In this document: positions 2,890-25,666 of the stretch, in pieces
Numbering within the stretch: the stretch's first letter is position 1
How the letters are laid out: the number at the start of each line of letters is the position of its first letter
Virus record (IMG/VR): IMGVR_UViG_2609459819_000001
Coordinates: 1-42,054 of that record
Strand: one strand, 5' to 3'
Origin: a virus
Lineage: Duplodnaviria; Heunggongvirae; Uroviricota; Caudoviricetes
Length of the DNA stretch: 42,054 nt
Translations under genes and position numbers: made by a program
The notes under the pieces: model-generated
What the model saw: only the letters and a program-made list of their open reading frames with translations
Databases searched by the model: none
Told to the model about the DNA's origin: nothing

Positions 2890-3243
2890 TTATGCCTCGC
2901 TTGTTACAGTCGTCTGGCCGTAGATTGTGTCAATGGAGGAAGTGAAGGTGACGCGACGGCTGGTGCCGTCATAATTGGTATCGAAGGAAAGAATCGACAG
3001 AACGCCCGGTGTGTCCTGTATGCGTTCACGTATAGCCAGGATGTAGACGTCAGATCGCTGTTTACCAAGCACCGACTGAACATACGGCGTGCCTTCCGTC
3101 AGATCGAGAAACCACTGACCGCGCCACAGCTCGAAGCGGGTTTTTACTGCCTGGGCGACACATTCCGGACTGTCGATAAGGAAAGTATCGTCACCCTGCC
3201 CGAAAGTGTAATCACCGTCGGCGTCTTCACGTCTGTATCGCAT
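2890..3243 (-). CDS. Small baseplate protein (gpW / Mu gp46 position)
   Basis: 117-aa ORF immediately upstream of J-like gene. Confidence 0.4.
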   Translation of the reverse strand: MRYRREDADGDYTFGQGDDTFLIDSPECVAQAVKTRFELWRGQWFLDLTEGTPYVQSVLGKQRSDVYILAIRERIQDTPGVLSILSFDTNYDGTSRRVTFTSSIDTIYGQTTVTSEA

Positions 3244-3246
3244 AAA

Positions 3247-3345
3247 TCACCACCAGCGTATAGCGCTAATAACGCTTGACAGACCGAATAAAAAGAACAC
3301 GGCCCAGATGAGGAAGAATTTCCAGTTGGGTAGTTTTTCGCCCAT
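3247..3345 (-). CDS. 32-aa hydrophobic small ORF (MGEKLPNWKFFLIWAVFFLFGLSSVISAIRWW)
   Basis: Manually translated; GGGAG about 9 nt upstream of ATG; one predicted TM helix; below the ORF-track length cut-off. Confidence 0.2.
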   Translation of the reverse strand: MGEKLPNWKFFLIWAVFFLFGLSSVISAIRWW

Positions 3346-3424
3346 GACTCGCAACTCCCGTATCAGTTTGCTAAAATTAATCACATATTCTCCCTTGCTA
3401 TCCTCAAGGTGCAGAAAGTAAAAA

Positions 3425-3451
3425 GCCCCGAAGTGTTAGCGCACCCGGGGC
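3425..3451 (-). terminator. GC hairpin (GCCCCG..CGGGGC) with T runs on both sides; weak intrinsic terminator or RNA stability element
   Basis: 6-bp GC stem 3425-3430/3446-3451, flanked by AAAA (3421-3424) and TTTT (3452-3455). Confidence 0.3.
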
Positions 3452-3471
3452 TTTTGTCTGTTTGGTAGTTT

Positions 3472-4212
3472 TTAATTAGGCGCGGTAGTATTCCCGCTGC
3501 CATTCTGCACACCGCCATGGGTATGCTGGATGAGGCTCTTACCTCCAGCCTTCACATCGTTAGTCACCGTCACCGGCCCAAGCATCGTCGCAGTACCGCC
3601 ACTTTCGCCCATTCCCTGAGACAGATTGCCATTAATCGTTACGTTGCCGTTCAGCGTGATAGTCGGGGATGTGATTGTCGTTCCACCTTCAGCCGTAGCC
3701 GTGAGCTGGCCCGGTGTTTGAACGGTGATGTTATGTCCTGCGGCAACCTCTACGAACGCCGCACCATCATCGGTTCGCAGCTGCGCGGCGCTGGTACTGA
3801 TACCGCTGATTTTCTGTGCTTGCGACTGCGGGCCAACGATGGCGAACGCATCAGATAAGTCATGCTGTCGCGGATCGACGGTCTCCTGAACGCCGCCGCT
3901 CTGCCACCAGAAATCGATGCAACGGTCGGCAAAGATCAGCAGGCACTCGTCGCCTTCTTTTACCGGAAAGGTCAGCGTGCAACCGCCGCCGCGCGGGAAG
4001 ATAACCGGCACATCCACCAGCGGTTTTAATTCGGTGGAGCCATCGCCAACAATACCGCGAAGCGCTACCTCTACTGTGCAGGTAACAGTGTCAGGATCGA
4101 ACGACTGAATGATGCCGGGCATCGCTACGCGCATCTGGGTAGACACCGAATCGGCAATGGCCTGCGCGGTCTGCTGCTCACCGCCGATCTGTGATTGAGT
4201 TGTGATTGGCAT
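3472..4212 (-). CDS. Baseplate central spike protein (gpV / Mu gp45-like)
   Basis: 246-aa ORF; Gly/Thr-rich C-terminus ending LIQHTHGGVQNGSGNTTAPN; position between hub and W-like genes; GGGGG 4 nt upstream of ATG. Confidence 0.5.
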   Translation of the reverse strand: MPITTQSQIGGEQQTAQAIADSVSTQMRVAMPGIIQSFDPDTVTCTVEVALRGIVGDGSTELKPLVDVPVIFPRGGGCTLTFPVKEGDECLLIFADRCIDFWWQSGGVQETVDPRQHDLSDAFAIVGPQSQAQKISGISTSAAQLRTDDGAAFVEVAAGHNITVQTPGQLTATAEGGTTITSPTITLNGNVTINGNLSQGMGESGGTATMLGPVTVTNDVKAGGKSLIQHTHGGVQNGSGNTTAPN

Positions 4213-4223
4213 AAAACCCCCAT

Positions 4224-4247
4224 AAAAAAACCAGCCGAAGCTGGTTT
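4224..4247 (-). terminator. Hairpin with T7 run on minus strand (ACCAGC-ttcg-GCTGGT then TTTTTTT)
   Basis: Stem 4230-4235/4240-4245; lies 12 nt upstream of the V-like start, so probably a cargo-gene terminator read through in the late transcript. Confidence 0.4.
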
Positions 4248-4434
4248 GGTATCAATTATCTCTTAGTAACTAAGCTACATCAGTGTGAAGTAAGGCTTTT
4301 CCGCTGCAATGGCACACATTCACAAGGTGTATTAGGATATGTTTGCAACAAGTAAGCATTGAAAATCAATTTCAGCCATGAAGCCGCCATAGAGTGGACC
4401 TGCACCATCGCATTATTGACTACAGGAGTAACAA

Positions 4435-4725
4435 ATGGGATTTAGATTTCGTAAAAGAATCCGGATTGCGCCCGGACTCGCGATCAACATTAGTAAAAGC
4501 GGAGTAAGCACTTCAATTGGTGGTAAAGGTTCCACCATTAACATCGGGAAAAAAGGCGTAAAGATGACAAATGGCCTTCCCGGCACGGGGCTGTCGCATA
4601 CCACTAACCTTTACTCTCCCGGGAAATCGACAGAAAAAAAACAACTTACTCATAAGCAAAAAATAATTAGAAACATCCTGTTCGTAATTATTGTGTTTAT
4701 TATAATTAAAGCTCAATATTTTTGA
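4435..4725 (+). CDS. DUF4236-like small protein with C-terminal TM helix
   Basis: 96-aa ORF on opposite strand to tail genes; N-terminus MGFRFRKRIRIAPGLAINISKSGVSTSIGGKG recalled as the DUF4236 signature; AGGAG 7 nt upstream; AT-rich. Confidence 0.5.
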   Translation: MGFRFRKRIRIAPGLAINISKSGVSTSIGGKGSTINIGKKGVKMTNGLPGTGLSHTTNLYSPGKSTEKKQLTHKQKIIRNILFVIIVFIIIKAQYF

Positions 4726-4730
4726 CGCAT

Positions 4731-4760
4731 GCCCGCCTATCTGGCGGGCTATTTTACTTT
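4731..4760 (+). terminator. Intrinsic terminator after the DUF4236-like gene
   Basis: GCCCGCC-tatct-GGCGGGC stem (4731-4749) followed by TATTTTACTTTT. Confidence 0.5.
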
Positions 4761-5639
4761 TCGGCAGTCGTATGTTGCATACTGACGCGGCGCATTCATG
4801 CTGGCTTGCAGCCACTGGGCATTGAGAATAGCTTTTCCGTTGCGCTTGATGTACTCAAGCCCAACCCAGCGGCCGGGTTGATTAGTGGCAGCCATCCACT
4901 CCATCTTGATGTTATCCGGTTCCCCTTTGGTGCTACCACCAGAGCCGATTGGGCTAATTTTTTGCGTCTCTGGTTTTGCGCCATTAATTCTGGCCCAACC
5001 ATCAGCAGAAGACAGATCAATCGTATAAGGACCACAGACTGTTTTGTAATTCACGCCAAGCTTTTCGTTACTGTGAACATTACTACTTTTCTCGTAATCA
5101 GCCTTGGCTACGTCGTTCATTTTTTGATAGATGGCAGGTTGCTTCAGCGATAACTCATTTAGCTGTTTTACAAAATTTTCTCGTGAAACCTCTGCAAGCC
5201 CCATGGGTTTTCTATCAATGATATAATCATCATAAATCTTTAATACAACAGCCGAAGAAGAAAGTTTCTTAGCTAAATCATTTACAAAATTGAGATAATT
5301 TAGCTGAGAATTATCTCTTACATCGATAGCCCTAACTCCACCTGTGCCGTACTCATGATATGCAGCATAAAAAGCTGGTATATTCTCCGGCTTTTTATTG
5401 ATTGCCTTAATCAACCCGTCAGGACCACAGATCTCGCCACTCCAGTCAATTAGTGACTTCCCTTTAGATTTCCATGTCTGACAATCATCTGTCGATAAAA
5501 TTACTATCGGCTGCCATCCTGGACGTCTTTTGTACTCAGCGTTCTGCGCGGAATTAAAGCCTGCACTCGCGCCCCCGGATAAGAGCAACCCGGAAAGAAA
5601 AAGTGCGCTATATCGAATTCCGTTCTTATTTGTACCCAC
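4749..5639 (-). CDS. Secreted protein of unknown function (Sec-type signal peptide); cargo gene inside the baseplate cluster
   Basis: 296-aa ORF; GTG start 1 nt after hub stop with AGGAGG 7 nt upstream; N-terminus has basic n-region, hydrophobic LFLSGLLLSGGASAGF and ASA/AQNA cleavage-like motif; AT-rich. Confidence 0.5.
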   Translation of the reverse strand: MGTNKNGIRYSALFLSGLLLSGGASAGFNSAQNAEYKRRPGWQPIVILSTDDCQTWKSKGKSLIDWSGEICGPDGLIKAINKKPENIPAFYAAYHEYGTGGVRAIDVRDNSQLNYLNFVNDLAKKLSSSAVVLKIYDDYIIDRKPMGLAEVSRENFVKQLNELSLKQPAIYQKMNDVAKADYEKSSNVHSNEKLGVNYKTVCGPYTIDLSSADGWARINGAKPETQKISPIGSGGSTKGEPDNIKMEWMAATNQPGRWVGLEYIKRNGKAILNAQWLQASMNAPRQYATYDCRKVK

Positions 5640-22203: not shown

Positions 22204-22480
22204 CCGCAACAGCCACTTTGATATCTTCCTCGGTTCTCTGTGACTCCAGTGCGATCTGCTGCCTGGCATATTGATTTGTCTCCAGAATGATGTTCGTTAT
22301 TGCTACGGTGCGCAGGACATTCGCGGTGATGGTCTCAAAGGAATCAGCGCGCTGTTCTGCATCGTCAGCGCGCCGCTGTTCCTCCAGAAACTTTCCATGG
22401 TAATGATTCGCTGACCAGACAAGACCACCAGCAATACAAGCAATAAACGTTAAAATGAGCGCCCAATAACTCATCTTCAT
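22088..22480 (-). CDS. i-spanin (Rz-like)
   Basis: N-terminal TM helix followed by charged coiled-coil-like region; WSANHYHGK resembles lambda Rz WAVNHYRDN; ATGA overlap with endolysin. Confidence 0.5.
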   Translation of the reverse strand: MKMSYWALILTFIACIAGGLVWSANHYHGKFLEEQRRADDAEQRADSFETITANVLRTVAITNIILETNQYARQQIALESQRTEEDIKVAVADDDCAVRFVPSGAVKRLHDYANGLRSSSGGSVTSQPDG

Positions 22481-23091
22481 ACCAGCAGCGCCGCCCGCGC
22501 CTTGTTGTATCGGACCTTACGATCCTCAATACCGTTCAGACCGCCGTTAATGATGCGAGTAACACGATTAATATCGGCACCGTAGATCATGCAGCCTTTA
22601 GAGGTGTAGAACCATGCAGCTGAGCGCGCAGCCTGTAGTTCCTGTTCCAGTTGTTCAGGTGAAGTCACCAAATCTAACTTCAGAGCAGCCCCGCAGGTGC
22701 GATAATTGTCGAGGCCAGTGATTTGAATTAACCCTCTGCCGCGATATTTCCAGCCGTCGCCGGGCGCTTTGTTACCCAGGCGGTTGCTATACACCAGATT
22801 GGCAATAGCATCCTGACGAGCTGCATGTCCGGATGTTCTGCCAAGGGCATCAGCCTGCTGCTGTGTGATCCTCTTTCCGAACGTCGCCACCAGCGCAGAT
22901 GGTGTGTAGTTCAAATTTTCAACTACAGCGCTAAAGCCACCAGACTCATGACCTACCTGAGCGATGAACATGGCCTGATCCGCGGGTGCTGTAATGCCGA
23001 ATTCTTTCATCGCTGCATCTACTGGTTGAAACCAGCGCACAGCCAGTCCGGCGCTGATACCAGCCGCCTTTTGAAATAATTGTTGGTTCAT
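22477..23091 (-). CDS. Endolysin, glycoside hydrolase family 19 (chitinase-like)
   Basis: EFGITAPADQAMFIAQVGHESGGF and GLIQITGLDNYRTCG match the GH19 phage endolysin pattern from memory; located between holins and spanins. Confidence 0.7.
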   Translation of the reverse strand: MNQQLFQKAAGISAGLAVRWFQPVDAAMKEFGITAPADQAMFIAQVGHESGGFSAVVENLNYTPSALVATFGKRITQQQADALGRTSGHAARQDAIANLVYSNRLGNKAPGDGWKYRGRGLIQITGLDNYRTCGAALKLDLVTSPEQLEQELQAARSAAWFYTSKGCMIYGADINRVTRIINGGLNGIEDRKVRYNKARAALLV

Positions 23092-23372
23092 TAGTGCCTC
23101 AGATGATCAACCAGGCGTGCAACGTTGCCTCTGACGGCCACCAGCACGGAAAGAAAAATAGTATTCGCCACGATAATGGGCCATGAGGAATGGGGATAAA
23201 TCCCACAGAGATAGGCCAACGGAACAGCACTGTATGTAACAGTAATCAGCCAGGCTAAACGTGAAACCCAAGGACGATGCCGCGAATCACCACGACGATA
23301 AAACATCAGAGTAATAACAACACAAGCACATAACAGCGCGTTTATAGTTGCTGTCGGGTCATTTAGCTCCAC
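23091..23372 (-). CDS. Holin-associated membrane protein (possible antiholin/holin)
   Basis: 93-aa ORF with about three TM segments; GTG start with GGGGAGG 5 nt upstream. Confidence 0.35.
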   Translation of the reverse strand: MELNDPTATINALLCACVVITLMFYRRGDSRHRPWVSRLAWLITVTYSAVPLAYLCGIYPHSSWPIIVANTIFLSVLVAVRGNVARLVDHLRH

Positions 23373-23745
23373 CTGAACCTCCCCGGCGCGTTATGAGCGC
23401 CACCAGCGACCCGATATCCTGATTATTCAGGAACGTCAGGATCTTAACGGCTAAAGCAGATACGATTACGGCACCAATGGCATCCAGAGGTTTATCACTG
23501 TATCCGGTCAAGCTTGCCAGCTTGGAGCCAACCAACCCAGAGCAAAGGATCCCGGCAATATACGACACGATAAAATATGCCAGTCGGCGCGATGCGCTCA
23601 GATCCGCTGCTGTTGCTATGTAGAATACAGCCCCTGCAAATGCGCCAAATACAACGCCGTAATCAGTTCCGGTCAGCAGTCCATAAACACTGGCACCCGT
23701 CAGGGCACCACCAGCCAGCCCAGTACCGGAAATTGGATCGGACAT
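23359..23745 (-). CDS. Putative holin
   Basis: 128-aa Gly-rich multi-TM protein; first gene of the lysis cassette; GAGGGGG upstream of ATG. Confidence 0.4.
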   Translation of the reverse strand: MSDPISGTGLAGGALTGASVYGLLTGTDYGVVFGAFAGAVFYIATAADLSASRRLAYFIVSYIAGILCSGLVGSKLASLTGYSDKPLDAIGAVIVSALAVKILTFLNNQDIGSLVALITRRGGSGGAK

Positions 23746-23861
23746 TTAGCCCCCTCTTAATTGCTGTGAGTCCTCTCAGGTATGAGGGGAAATAGGCTCA
23801 GGCTTCACGGGTTGGATTTATCAACAAAGCACGTAGCGGATGATTACCGTGAGCCGGAAAT

Positions 23862-23887
23862 AAAAAAGCCCCAGCGGGTGCCGGGGC
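23862..23887 (-). terminator. Intrinsic terminator downstream of the Q-lysis cargo gene
   Basis: Minus-strand GCCCC..GGGGC stem followed by TTTTTT. Confidence 0.4.
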
Positions 23888-23979
23888 GAGTTATAGATAA
23901 GTGCATGCTCTAGCAGCAAATCACTGTATTTGATATCGTTAAATCGCCAAAAATAACCCTATCAAACATGGAGAATTAT

Positions 23980-24129
23980 ATGAGTGAATCAAACAAACCA
24001 TCTGGAGAAAATAAGCCTCAACCCGCACCACAGCCTAAACCGGCTCCACAGCCAGCCGAAAGAAATCTGAGGACAGGTTATACCTTTGTTGCCGATTCTG
24101 CTGAAAACATCAGAAAAAAAGGTAAGTAA
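23980..24129 (+). CDS. 49-aa Pro-rich small ORF (MSESNKPSGENKPQPAPQPKPAPQPAERNL...)
   Basis: Manually translated; GGAGA 5 nt upstream of ATG; convergent with and overlapping 20 nt of the 189-aa membrane protein gene. Confidence 0.2.
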   Translation: MSESNKPSGENKPQPAPQPKPAPQPAERNLRTGYTFVADSAENIRKKGK

Positions 24130-24679
24130 GTACTGAGATTACAAGTGCACAAACAGGGGTGAGGATTGTAGCGATCCTTACCCTTTCTAGTTCTCGGCCT
24201 ATTCTGGCATTCTCTTTTTTACTCATTTCAGCCATTCTGGTTAAATCCGCAAGCCGGTAGCGCCGCAAGACGTTCAATGTTGAACGCTTTCCTGAAAATC
24301 CTTTCGACTCAAAACCAGTGTAATCATCTTCAGTAAACCCTTTATAGTCATCATGGTAAAGCGCATAGGGTGTCGATGACACGAGAGCTCGTGACCTTAC
24401 AACGAGGACGCAGCGAACAAGATAAGCCGCACACATTGCCCAGTAGACTAAAAAAACAGACATTCCAGCGGTGAGGTAATCAAAACCTGTACGTTGCGTT
24501 AATAACAAAAATGACGAGCCCACGCCAGCAATGAGTATACTCAATAACTTCTGGCCATTTTCTTTGTTTAGTGCGTTGGACTGGTGAATTTCGCGTATAC
24601 AATCCTCGCCCTGCTTCTCCAGAAAAGCAACGAGTTCGTCGTCCGCATCCAAAAAGTAATCATCGGGTAGATTATTCAT
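24110..24679 (-). CDS. Membrane protein of unknown function (cargo gene between Q and lysis genes)
   Basis: 189-aa ORF; acidic N-terminal region, about three hydrophobic TM segments; bracketed by two minus-strand terminators. Confidence 0.45.
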   Translation of the reverse strand: MNNLPDDYFLDADDELVAFLEKQGEDCIREIHQSNALNKENGQKLLSILIAGVGSSFLLLTQRTGFDYLTAGMSVFLVYWAMCAAYLVRCVLVVRSRALVSSTPYALYHDDYKGFTEDDYTGFESKGFSGKRSTLNVLRRYRLADLTRMAEMSKKENARIGRELERVRIATILTPVCALVISVLTYLFF

Positions 24680-24756
24680 TCCCCAACCTCACATCCTGTA
24701 ATGCATCAATTTTACCTGAATGTCTCGAACCTTGGTATTGCTGTCTCCAGAAACGC

Positions 24757-24784
24757 AAAAAACCCCACGGTGTTATCCGCAGGG
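24757..24784 (-). terminator. tR'-like intrinsic terminator downstream of Q
   Basis: RNA stem CCCUGCGG/CCGUGGGG (with G-U pairs) followed by U6, about 100 nt downstream of Q stop. Confidence 0.5.
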
Positions 24785-24818
24785 CTTGAAACGAAGGCAT
24801 TAACCCATCGTTGGGACA

Positions 24819-24846
24819 AAATTAACACAGATTCGGGAAAAGTAAA
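24819..24846 (-). promoter_or_regulatory. pR'-like late promoter candidate
   Basis: TTTACT-16 nt-TAATTT with TGT extended -10, between Q stop and the tR'-like terminator; predicts a short 6S-like transcript. Confidence 0.3.
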
Positions 24847-24883
24847 TAGCCCAAGACAAAATCATAGGCTATCGCTATAGGCG

Positions 24884-25666
24884 TTACCGCGTTATCTGCT
24901 TAAGCTGTTTTTCGGCCCAGGACTCTTCGATATCAAATTTCGTGATCAGCAGGTCGTAGAATGGCTTAACAGACTTTTTCCAGGTGTCCAGGCTAATGGC
25001 GTCAGTAATCTGGCATACAGCAGCATAGGCTTCAGTCGACGGAAGTCGTTCATACCCACGCCCTCCGCAGCGCTTACAGTCAGCCAGAACAGGAACGCCC
25101 TGTTTCTCAGTAAGAGCCTGGTTCACTGCCTTGCCGCGCCCATGGCAATCACTGCAAGAAGCACTAACCACACCAGAGCCATTACACTTTTTGCATAGCA
25201 CTTTGATGGATTCTTTGACCTTCACCATCCCGGACACGGTCATTTTCCCTTCTGGCTTACGGAATTTATTGGTAAACACGTCAGCCTCAATGAAGCCCTG
25301 ACCGTCACAACAATCGCACTGCTTCACGCTGGCAGCGCTGCGGGAATAGTCCTCAAAAGCGAAGGTGGCCAACTGGTGCATCACCTGAGGTTTAACCGCG
25401 GCACCGAGCTTACGCAGTGCGGCAACCTTGTCGCATTTTGTCATCGCGTACTCAGCCAGCAGACCGATCGCCCGATCCCGGTCGTTATTGCTTATGCCCA
25501 TCTTGCCGAGGAAGGCGCTGTAACCCATTGCGGCGCGTTCCTGCGTCATGCCCATGGCAGCCATTATGTCGGTACCGGTCAGTGAATCGGAGGCGGTAGC
25601 GCGCGGAGAATCGCTAATCAGTGTGGATTTAGCGAAGTGGTATTTCACTGTGTTTTCAAGGTTCAT
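24884..25666 (-). CDS. Q: Late-gene antiterminator Q (lambda Q family)
   Basis: N-terminal SDSPRATASDSLTGTDIMAAMGM and C-terminal TWKKSVKPFYDLL closely resemble lambda Q as recalled; multiple CxxC zinc motifs. Confidence 0.85.
   Translation of the reverse strand: MNLENTVKYHFAKSTLISDSPRATASDSLTGTDIMAAMGMTQERAAMGYSAFLGKMGISNNDRDRAIGLLAEYAMTKCDKVAALRKLGAAVKPQVMHQLATFAFEDYSRSAASVKQCDCCDGQGFIEADVFTNKFRKPEGKMTVSGMVKVKESIKVLCKKCNGSGVVSASCSDCHGRGKAVNQALTEKQGVPVLADCKRCGGRGYERLPSTEAYAAVCQITDAISLDTWKKSVKPFYDLLITKFDIEESWAEKQLKQITR

Follow-up and report, generated by a model that had tools for sequence, protein, structure and literature searches.

A convergent gene pair between Q and the holin genes

The locus described here occupies positions 23862 to 24883 of a 42,054-nucleotide (nt) stretch of DNA, hereafter referred to as the window, which corresponds to the virus record IMGVR_UViG_2609459819_000001 of IMG/VR (Caudoviricetes). 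It is a self-contained two-gene accessory cassette, or moron, lodged in the variable slot between Q and the holin genes of a lambdoid E. coli prophage. The same 1151-bp region, with 100% identity, is present in the chromosome of E. coli AR_0119. The late features lie on the minus strand, so that "downstream of Q" means from high to low coordinates. One gene of the pair (24110-24679, minus strand) encodes a predicted inner-membrane protein of 189 amino acids (aa) assigned to phrog_11870 (6e-84). The other (23980-24129, plus strand, with an alternative in-frame start at 23968) encodes a proline-rich, basic mini-protein of 49 aa assigned to phrog_14506 (5e-26). Function is unassigned in PHROG for both families, and the gene pair is without functional annotation in the libraries and records examined. 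The two genes are convergent and overlap by 20 nt at their 3' ends (24110-24129).

An earlier note on this DNA, made from the sequence alone, had reported the smaller open reading frame (ORF) as Pro-rich, preceded by a good Shine-Dalgarno (SD) sequence and overlapping the 3' end of the membrane gene from the opposite strand. This description is accurate, a GGAG being located 6 nt ahead of the ATG. By contrast, the treatment of the mini-ORF as an incidental overlap has to be given up, since its occurrence, its codon pattern and its co-divergence with the membrane gene are those of a conserved partner gene. A facing ORF of 47-53 aa was found at all 12 loci that carry an intact 189-aa homologue (from Serratia, Yersinia, Trabulsiella, Citrobacter and Providencia, from phage records and from metagenomes), with an overlap of 20, 23 or 32 nt. 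Differences among the mini-ORFs amount to 0.415, 0.327 and 0.58 at codon positions 1, 2 and 3, respectively, and indels are in-frame only; the codon-position pattern indicates a translated gene. The pairwise distances of the mini-protein and of the 189-aa protein are correlated (Mantel r = 0.78, a value reached in 0 of 5000 permutations), which indicates that the pair is inherited as a unit. The mini-proteins share a common pattern, composed of M-S/T-x-x-x-K/Q-P, a middle part rich in Pro, Gln and Lys, a core F-x-T/V-x-R-x-x-V-G-D-S-A and a basic tail; that of the window contains 8 Pro, and 9 Lys plus Arg against 5 Asp plus Glu. It has 15 homologues in the databases, and RefSeq annotates exactly the same coding sequence in the identical E. 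coli prophage (WP_162842358). Facing ORFs are not rare per se, as 5 of the window's 39 other long ORFs have one of 44-80 aa at their 3' end. It is the conservation of the mini-ORF, far beyond chance, and not its mere presence that constitutes the evidence. Judged from these sequence comparisons, the mini-ORF is a real gene and the conserved partner in a two-gene module.

The coupling recurs in more distant members of the family. The genomic contexts of seven remote relatives (about 20-26% identity) were read, and a facing Pro-rich mini-ORF was found at six of these loci, overlapping the membrane gene by 24-65 nt in five and abutting it in one. In L144, where the relative follows a P2-like gpD gene, the facing ORF encodes 51 aa rich in Pro, Gln and Glu and overlaps by 28 nt. 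In L150, the relative lies in an immunity region, beside YdaS/YdaT genes and a divergent 153-aa gene that is cI-like by position; its facing ORF (46 aa, ...PPPPPKP...VPVFDHV...RKKK) overlaps by 34 nt. Two short contigs harbor facing ORFs of 44 aa (L148, MTSNNNKPAAPRPQPQP..., 56-nt overlap) and 45 aa (L152, MSNQKPSQPKPQQPP...ERAIVFDHAE..., 24-nt overlap), and in L146, a contig that ends early, a facing Pro-rich frame is cut by the contig end, with an overlap of about 65 nt. In L020, beside SieB and HicAB, a Pro-rich facing ORF of 34 aa, read from an internal start codon, abuts the 3' end. The seventh relative, in a lambdoid early/replication region (L145), has no facing mini-ORF. Four of the remote partner ORFs rank among the top 13 of 761 six-frame ORFs scored with a hidden Markov model (HMM) of the close mini-proteins. 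The recurrence of facing mini-ORFs in other phage contexts indicates that the pair is one module, untied to lysis genes. The L020 member, SieB and the HicA/HicB pair share a small accessory island (2968-5451) that lies downstream of a Q-like gene.

The 189-aa protein has a net charge of -7 over its 44 N-terminal residues and three hydrophobic segments (approximately residues 45-61, 69-94 and 170-189), in agreement with the acidic N-terminus and about three transmembrane (TM) helices announced in the earlier note. TM1 and TM2 form a hairpin, a basic region of about 75 aa lies between TM2 and TM3, and TM3 is C-terminal. From the positive-inside rule, an N-in/C-out topology is predicted, in which the N-terminus and the basic region would be cytoplasmic. 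An AlphaFold2 model computed from a 36-sequence alignment (predicted local distance difference test score of 81.6) contains long helices at residues 14-62, 68-92 and 134-188. Homologues number 115, with identities down to 43%; most are exactly 189 aa long and all the named ones come from Enterobacterales. A profile search gathered 104 representatives, including relatives of 160-200 aa with about 20-35% identity and the same architecture. Neither the 189-aa nor the 49-aa protein of the window has a Pfam or NCBIfam match, the best hit of the profile against PDB sequences reached only E = 0.18, and fold searches were uninformative. A Pfam search with 62 family members returned only scattered noise from domains of unknown function (DUFs). 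In PADLOC, 2 of these 62 members match the PycTM model (PDLC02364), and one (4e-5) matches the "2TM effector" model (PDLC00700) of the cyclic oligonucleotide-based anti-phage signaling system (CBASS). The best PycTM match (1.5e-8) was narrowed by elimination to 16 closer relatives, and the member P0216 matches PycTM at 5.5e-4 over residues 15-137. These sequence matches of relatives may be taken as a lead toward a membrane-perturbing effector rather than as membership of either family. Three TM helices joined to a long helical bundle on the cytoplasmic side would likewise suit an effector. Two disrupted alleles would fit a costly gene: in L010 (Leclercia adecarboxylata, 4001-4760) the membrane gene is frameshifted twice and the mini-ORF and its leader are intact, and in L009 (Symbiopectobacterium purcellii, 4001-4372) the membrane gene is cut by what is apparently an insertion sequence transposase gene.

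A hairpin leader shared with other cargo genes

Directly upstream of the SD sequence of the mini-gene lies a conserved hairpin element (23929-23966) of the form TTTGATA-TC-GTTA-[AATCGCCAAAAA]-TAAC-CC-TATCAAA. Its upper stem is GTTA/TAAC, its 12-nt loop is invariant and its lower stem measures 7-9 bp; neither coding sequence is as well conserved as the leader element TTGATATCGTTAAATCGCCAAAAGTAAC. When viral contigs were scanned with 16 nt of this leader element, at least 120 stretches (L021-L140) were returned, with the extended motif present in about 72 among the matches listed. Wherever tblastn located a holin or an endolysin gene, the motif was upstream of that gene and oriented toward Q, at about 170-190 nt from the holin start where a holin was identified. 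The gene that starts 25-30 nt after TTGATATCGTTAAATCGCCAAAAGTAAC varies from locus to locus (examples are L030, L037, L049, L111, L117, L122, L132 and L136): it may encode the mini-protein, a zinc-ribbon protein of 67-72 aa, a protein of 92-99 aa, a DUF2441 protein of 179 aa, or proteins of 163, about 150 and 170 aa. One of the 92-99 aa proteins weakly resembles the antitoxin GhoS (PF11080, 9e-4, below threshold). Among complete E. coli genomes, the leader motif is found in 258 of 5426 (about 5%); its commonest setting, as judged from a genome sampled in the largest identity band, is the Rac-like allele of the pair, beside trkG. To judge by its sequence and distribution, the hairpin element resembles a common socket, for expression or recombination, that serves antisense-oriented cargo. 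In E. coli 300709 (L142, 2555-3049), the same leader precedes a 92-aa gene that faces a 76-aa gene of the late strand, their 3' ends overlapping by 15 nt; this is a second cassette type of the convergent-overlap design.

The pairing potential of the element was tested on 33 distinct leaders with a structure supplied by hand, RNAalifold having predicted none on the leader alignment. In this test, 82.6% of the helix cells were paired, against 26-41% with a slid partner, and pair 20-56 was CG in 12 sequences and UA in 12, counts that come from sequences that are not phylogenetically independent. Read on the late (minus) strand, 381 of 420 helix cells pair, versus 347 of 420 on the other strand. 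The non-Watson-Crick cells comprise 45 AC/CA versus 11 GU/UG, an excess indicating that the hairpin fits the late strand better. Rfam searches of the window (gathering threshold) and of the locus (E-value threshold) returned nothing credible.

Other elements bear on the expression of the two genes. No intrinsic terminator was found 3' of the mini-gene on its own strand within 24130-24700, so that its transcript should run antisense into the membrane gene. About 30 nt ahead of the start codon of the 189-aa gene, a motif GACATTCAGGTAAAATTGA (24706-24724, minus strand) that includes a -10-like TAAAAT (24714-24709) is a candidate for its own promoter. This motif is conserved across loci whose proteins share only about 50-60% identity, and no conserved -35 accompanies it.

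The cargo slot and its surroundings

The upstream boundary of the slot is the gene of the late-gene antiterminator Q (260 aa; 24884-25666, minus strand; PF03589, 2e-45; phrog_127), annotated as an antitermination protein in the identical prophage of AR_0119. It is followed on the same strand by the 189-aa ORF, two holin genes, a GH19 endolysin gene and the Rz/Rz1 region. A pR'-like promoter (24846-24799, minus strand) was recognized by alignment with lambda pR' and HK225. It is composed of a -35 TTTACT (24846-24841; TTGACT in lambda), a -10 TTAATT (24825-24820; TAAATT in lambda) and, after the -10, a 14-nt element AACGATGGGTTAAT (24812-24799) identical to that of lambda, which we take, from established knowledge of lambda pR', to be the sigma-70-dependent pause and Q-engagement site. 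A strict sigma-70 consensus scan did not flag this promoter. Next comes a tR'-like intrinsic terminator (24750-24787, minus strand; -19.1 kcal/mol) with an 11-bp stem (24787-24760) and a U tract, the homologous site of which is annotated as a rho-independent terminator in HK225. From pR' to tR', the predicted RNA measures only about 60-65 nt in this locus; its counterpart in lambda is the 194-nt 6S RNA. Beyond the 189-aa gene, a second intrinsic terminator (23858-23887, minus strand; -17.5 kcal/mol), made of an 8-bp GC-rich stem (23887-23868) and a U tract, closes the cassette before the holin, and a terminator is present at the equivalent position in L003 and L007. The 189-aa gene lies between these two strong late-strand terminators. 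The succession given in the earlier note, namely Q, pR'-like promoter, tR'-like terminator, membrane gene, second terminator and holin, could thus be located in full and in that order on the minus strand. The downstream boundary is the first holin gene (Phage_holin_8; 23359-23745, minus strand; PF16931, 1e-34; phrog_198). Two holin genes of different families stand here in tandem with a 14-nt overlap (23091-23745), the second being of the Phage_holin_3_7 type (23091-23372, minus strand); the GH19 endolysin gene (22477-23091, minus strand) and the Rz/Rz1 region come next.

Similarity to an empty-slot E. coli prophage (L011), to HK225 (L012) and to mEp237 (L014) is limited to positions 23789-23872/23877 and 24745-24950. 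These breakpoints delimit an exchangeable cargo cassette of approximately 23873-24744. The tR' terminator lies within the conserved right flank and is therefore not part of the cassette; the second terminator sits at the left junction and is counted with it. Between these flanks, other phages hold nothing, an opposite-strand 137-aa gene or a 213-aa gene, and E. coli W619 holds a divergent allele of the same gene pair. The cargo slot proposed in the earlier note is therefore borne out by conserved flanks with empty, unrelated or divergent-pair content. The position between Q/pR'/tR' and the holin, the variable occupancy and the cassette's own terminator are all those of lambdoid late-region morons, and the slot and the moron layout are in this respect classical. 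The window allele is present in only 6 of 5426 complete E. coli genomes, against 81 that match the flanking sequences. Across lambdoid loci, the pair follows Q genes of three different families and precedes holins of four unrelated types. The family is nearly restricted to phages and prophages, as none of 83 E. coli matches is plasmid-borne and only 2 of 72,556 plasmid records match.

Some alleles call for separate mention. A common E. coli allele (L141, from E. coli TA8571; L003, phage vB_EcoS-673R7) belongs to a Rac-like prophage whose lysis cassette abuts trkG, and RefSeq annotates in it a longer form of the mini-ORF, of 216 nt. A 58%-identical allele is shared by L002 (PP818812, "Actinobacillus phage vB_Apl-pPE4") and the plasmid record CP100067 (a 47.7-kb E. 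coli "plasmid"). The L002 allele lies within a typical enterobacterial lambdoid late region, and the host assignment and replicon type of these two records look questionable.

Possible roles of the gene pair

Several known systems resemble the pair in part. Lambdoid Q-to-S morons, such as stx in 933W-type phages and lambda orf-64, occupy the same slot after pR'/tR', with variable occupancy and a terminator belonging to the cassette; the cargo of the window differs in being a convergent pair, one gene of which opposes the late operon behind a conserved, portable leader. PycTM and CBASS 2TM effectors are likewise small proteins with N-terminal TM helices, and a few family members match their models, whereas the window protein is unmatched, no cyclase or signaling partner was found at any locus, and the partner is a Pro-rich protein of 45-53 aa. 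Type I toxin-antitoxin systems with 3'-overlapping convergent transcripts include the prophage-borne txpA/RatA and bsrG/SR4 of B. subtilis. There too, a prophage-borne membrane protein faces a convergent unit that overlaps its 3' end, but the candidate toxin of the window is a 189-aa protein with three TM helices, and its partner encodes a conserved protein. The pair does not have the organization of a type II toxin-antitoxin system, namely a co-directional bicistronic operon with a DNA-binding antitoxin, its genes being convergent and its mini-protein having no recognizable domain. In exclusion systems of the SieB/Esc and RexAB types, a membrane protein of some 190 aa encoded by the prophage is accompanied by a small cognate antagonist or partner. 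The pair is similar in protein size and in having a small partner, with one relative in an immunity region and another beside a SieB gene; here, however, the partner is a separate convergent gene and not the product of an internal start. Relationship to SieB itself was rejected (hhalign probability of 0.2%, no PF14163 match).

The position of the mini-gene has a precedent in antisense units. The antisense small RNAs PasA and PasC lie between cargo and holin in prophages of enteropathogenic and enterohemorrhagic E. coli (PMC8550237; bioRxiv 10.64898/2026.05.13.724894). Like them, the unit of the window is placed just upstream of the holin and points back to Q, but it leads into a protein-coding gene. 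No similarity was seen on reading the PasA region of E2348/69, for which no formal alignment was made, and Rfam gave no match.

The reading that we favor, tentatively and with a probability of roughly 0.4, is that of a restrained membrane effector acting in exclusion, abortive infection or addiction. The 189-aa protein would be a membrane-perturbing effector, probably toxic when unrestrained, and the small basic protein, produced from its own antisense-oriented unit behind the hairpin leader, would restrain it through the protein and/or through antisense RNA. The basic mini-protein may also attach to the acidic N-terminus that the effector would expose to the cytoplasm. In the lysogen, transcripts from pR' would stop at tR' and the mini-gene would be transcribed toward Q, the effector being off or low, with its mRNA originating from a weak promoter of its own or from read-through. 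Since such an mRNA would end at the second terminator, it would be antisense to the whole mini-gene and its leader, and the convergent transcripts would share complementarity across the mini-gene and the 3'-terminal part of the effector gene. Q-driven read-through could trigger the system, as could a second phage whose infection depletes a partner that is short-lived or translation-sensitive. The released effector would then accumulate and act on the inner membrane, the outcome being exclusion, abortive infection or post-segregational addiction.

A number of observations weigh against this reading, in which the toxicity, the defense role and the interaction of the pair are inferred. The window protein has no match in PADLOC (2023) at E <= 1, nor in Pfam or NCBIfam; the PycTM and 2TM matches of its relatives are few and may partly reflect TM composition, and the gene tables and Pfam listings contain no cyclase near the pair in any locus examined. 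The disrupted alleles L009 and L010 are weak evidence for a costly gene, because pseudogenes are common in decaying prophages. A consensus scan found no promoter for the membrane gene or for the mini-gene, and a swap test gave no significant support (32/200 and 42/200) to a specific pairing of anti-SD and SD within the leader. The remote homologue L145 lacks a mini-ORF, and the HMM of the close mini-proteins is not significant against the remote mini-ORFs (E >= 0.37), so that the claim concerning the latter is one of recurring position and composition, and their homology is not claimed.

Among the alternatives, a non-toxic lysogenic-conversion factor is doubtful, though it accounts for part of the data. 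The membrane protein would in this case modify the envelope or transport, or directly block DNA entry, with the mini-protein as its regulator or as independent cargo. The classic moron layout (own terminator, possible own -10, cargo slot), the near confinement of the family to phages and prophages, and the relative located in an immunity region, the usual home of exclusion genes, would all be expected; two independent genes, however, fit poorly with the family-wide coupling and the conserved 3' overlap, and there is no similarity to SieB. Modulation of lysis timing, in which a membrane protein made from the late transcript would influence holin triggering as antiholin, enhancer or lysis inhibitor and the mini-protein would tune it, is quite unlikely. 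The 189-aa protein is a small multi-TM protein, as are holins and antiholins, and lambdoid loci invariably place the pair directly ahead of the holin, in the orientation of the late operon, even if other cargo separates it from Q. But the pair occurs with at least four unrelated holin types, and its remote homologues with mini-ORF lie far from lysis genes (next to P2-like gpD, in an immunity region, beside SieB/HicAB); these varied Q and holin partners and remote contexts weaken the idea. Many sibling phages lack the cassette altogether, which must therefore be dispensable for lysis. Identity as a holin or antiholin was rejected, with no match to such families in Pfam or NCBIfam, function unassigned in PHROG and no constant association with the lysis cassette; the family searches likewise revealed no clear homology to another core lysis component, a finding that the earlier note had named as contrary to its proposal. 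Of the three candidate roles that it had put forward, lysis timing thus loses ground, and superinfection exclusion and abortive infection stay plausible, on the strength of the weak PycTM and 2TM matches of relatives and not of a match to the window protein itself.

A system operating at the RNA level would account for other features. In such a type I-like toxin-antitoxin system or excludon, the antisense transcript would be the essential partner and the 49-aa peptide would be dispensable. The convergent genes with a conserved 3' overlap, the conserved structured hairpin 5' of the mini-gene and the lack of an intrinsic terminator after the mini-ORF on its strand are all in keeping with it. It is nevertheless distinctly improbable, given that the ORF is kept with in-frame indels only, a third-position bias and a conserved amino-acid motif, and that the candidate toxin has 189 aa, as compared with the hydrophobic peptides of less than 60 aa typical of type I systems. 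As for an absence of function, with a decaying hitch-hiker gene and a chance antisense ORF, the similar facing ORFs at 5 of the 39 other long ORFs are the one argument in its favor; it is effectively refuted by the conservation of both ORFs over Enterobacterales, with constant lengths and coding-type divergence.

A bolder, and unlikely, extension of the restrained-effector reading is that the pair represents a new and widespread class of phage-borne system, in which a three-helix effector would be wired by a 3'-3' overlap to a Pro-rich sensor of host translation or transcription, the hairpin serving as a shared "expression socket". Synthesis of the mini-protein, with its XPX motifs, its PP/PPP runs and its structured leader, would report on the state of the host, and a second phage, on infecting the cell, would bring about the collapse of the partner and free the effector. 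In remote alleles, the proline runs extend from PPP to PPPPP. The socket would allow lambdoid phages to plug varied antisense-oriented cargo genes beside the holin by means of the invariant hairpin. No description of the family-wide convergent wiring to a Pro-rich mini-gene, nor of a portable hairpin serving many cargo genes, was found in the literature consulted.

If the pair is toxin-like or anti-phage, it would be a system missed by defense catalogues (none in PADLOC 2023, Pfam or NCBIfam), with a close family spread over Enterobacterales. The family-wide convergent overlap with a mini-gene provides a testable design principle. Moreover, the shared hairpin leader would mark a hitherto undescribed plug-in cargo site next to the lysis cassette, one that may help in mining other accessory or defense genes.

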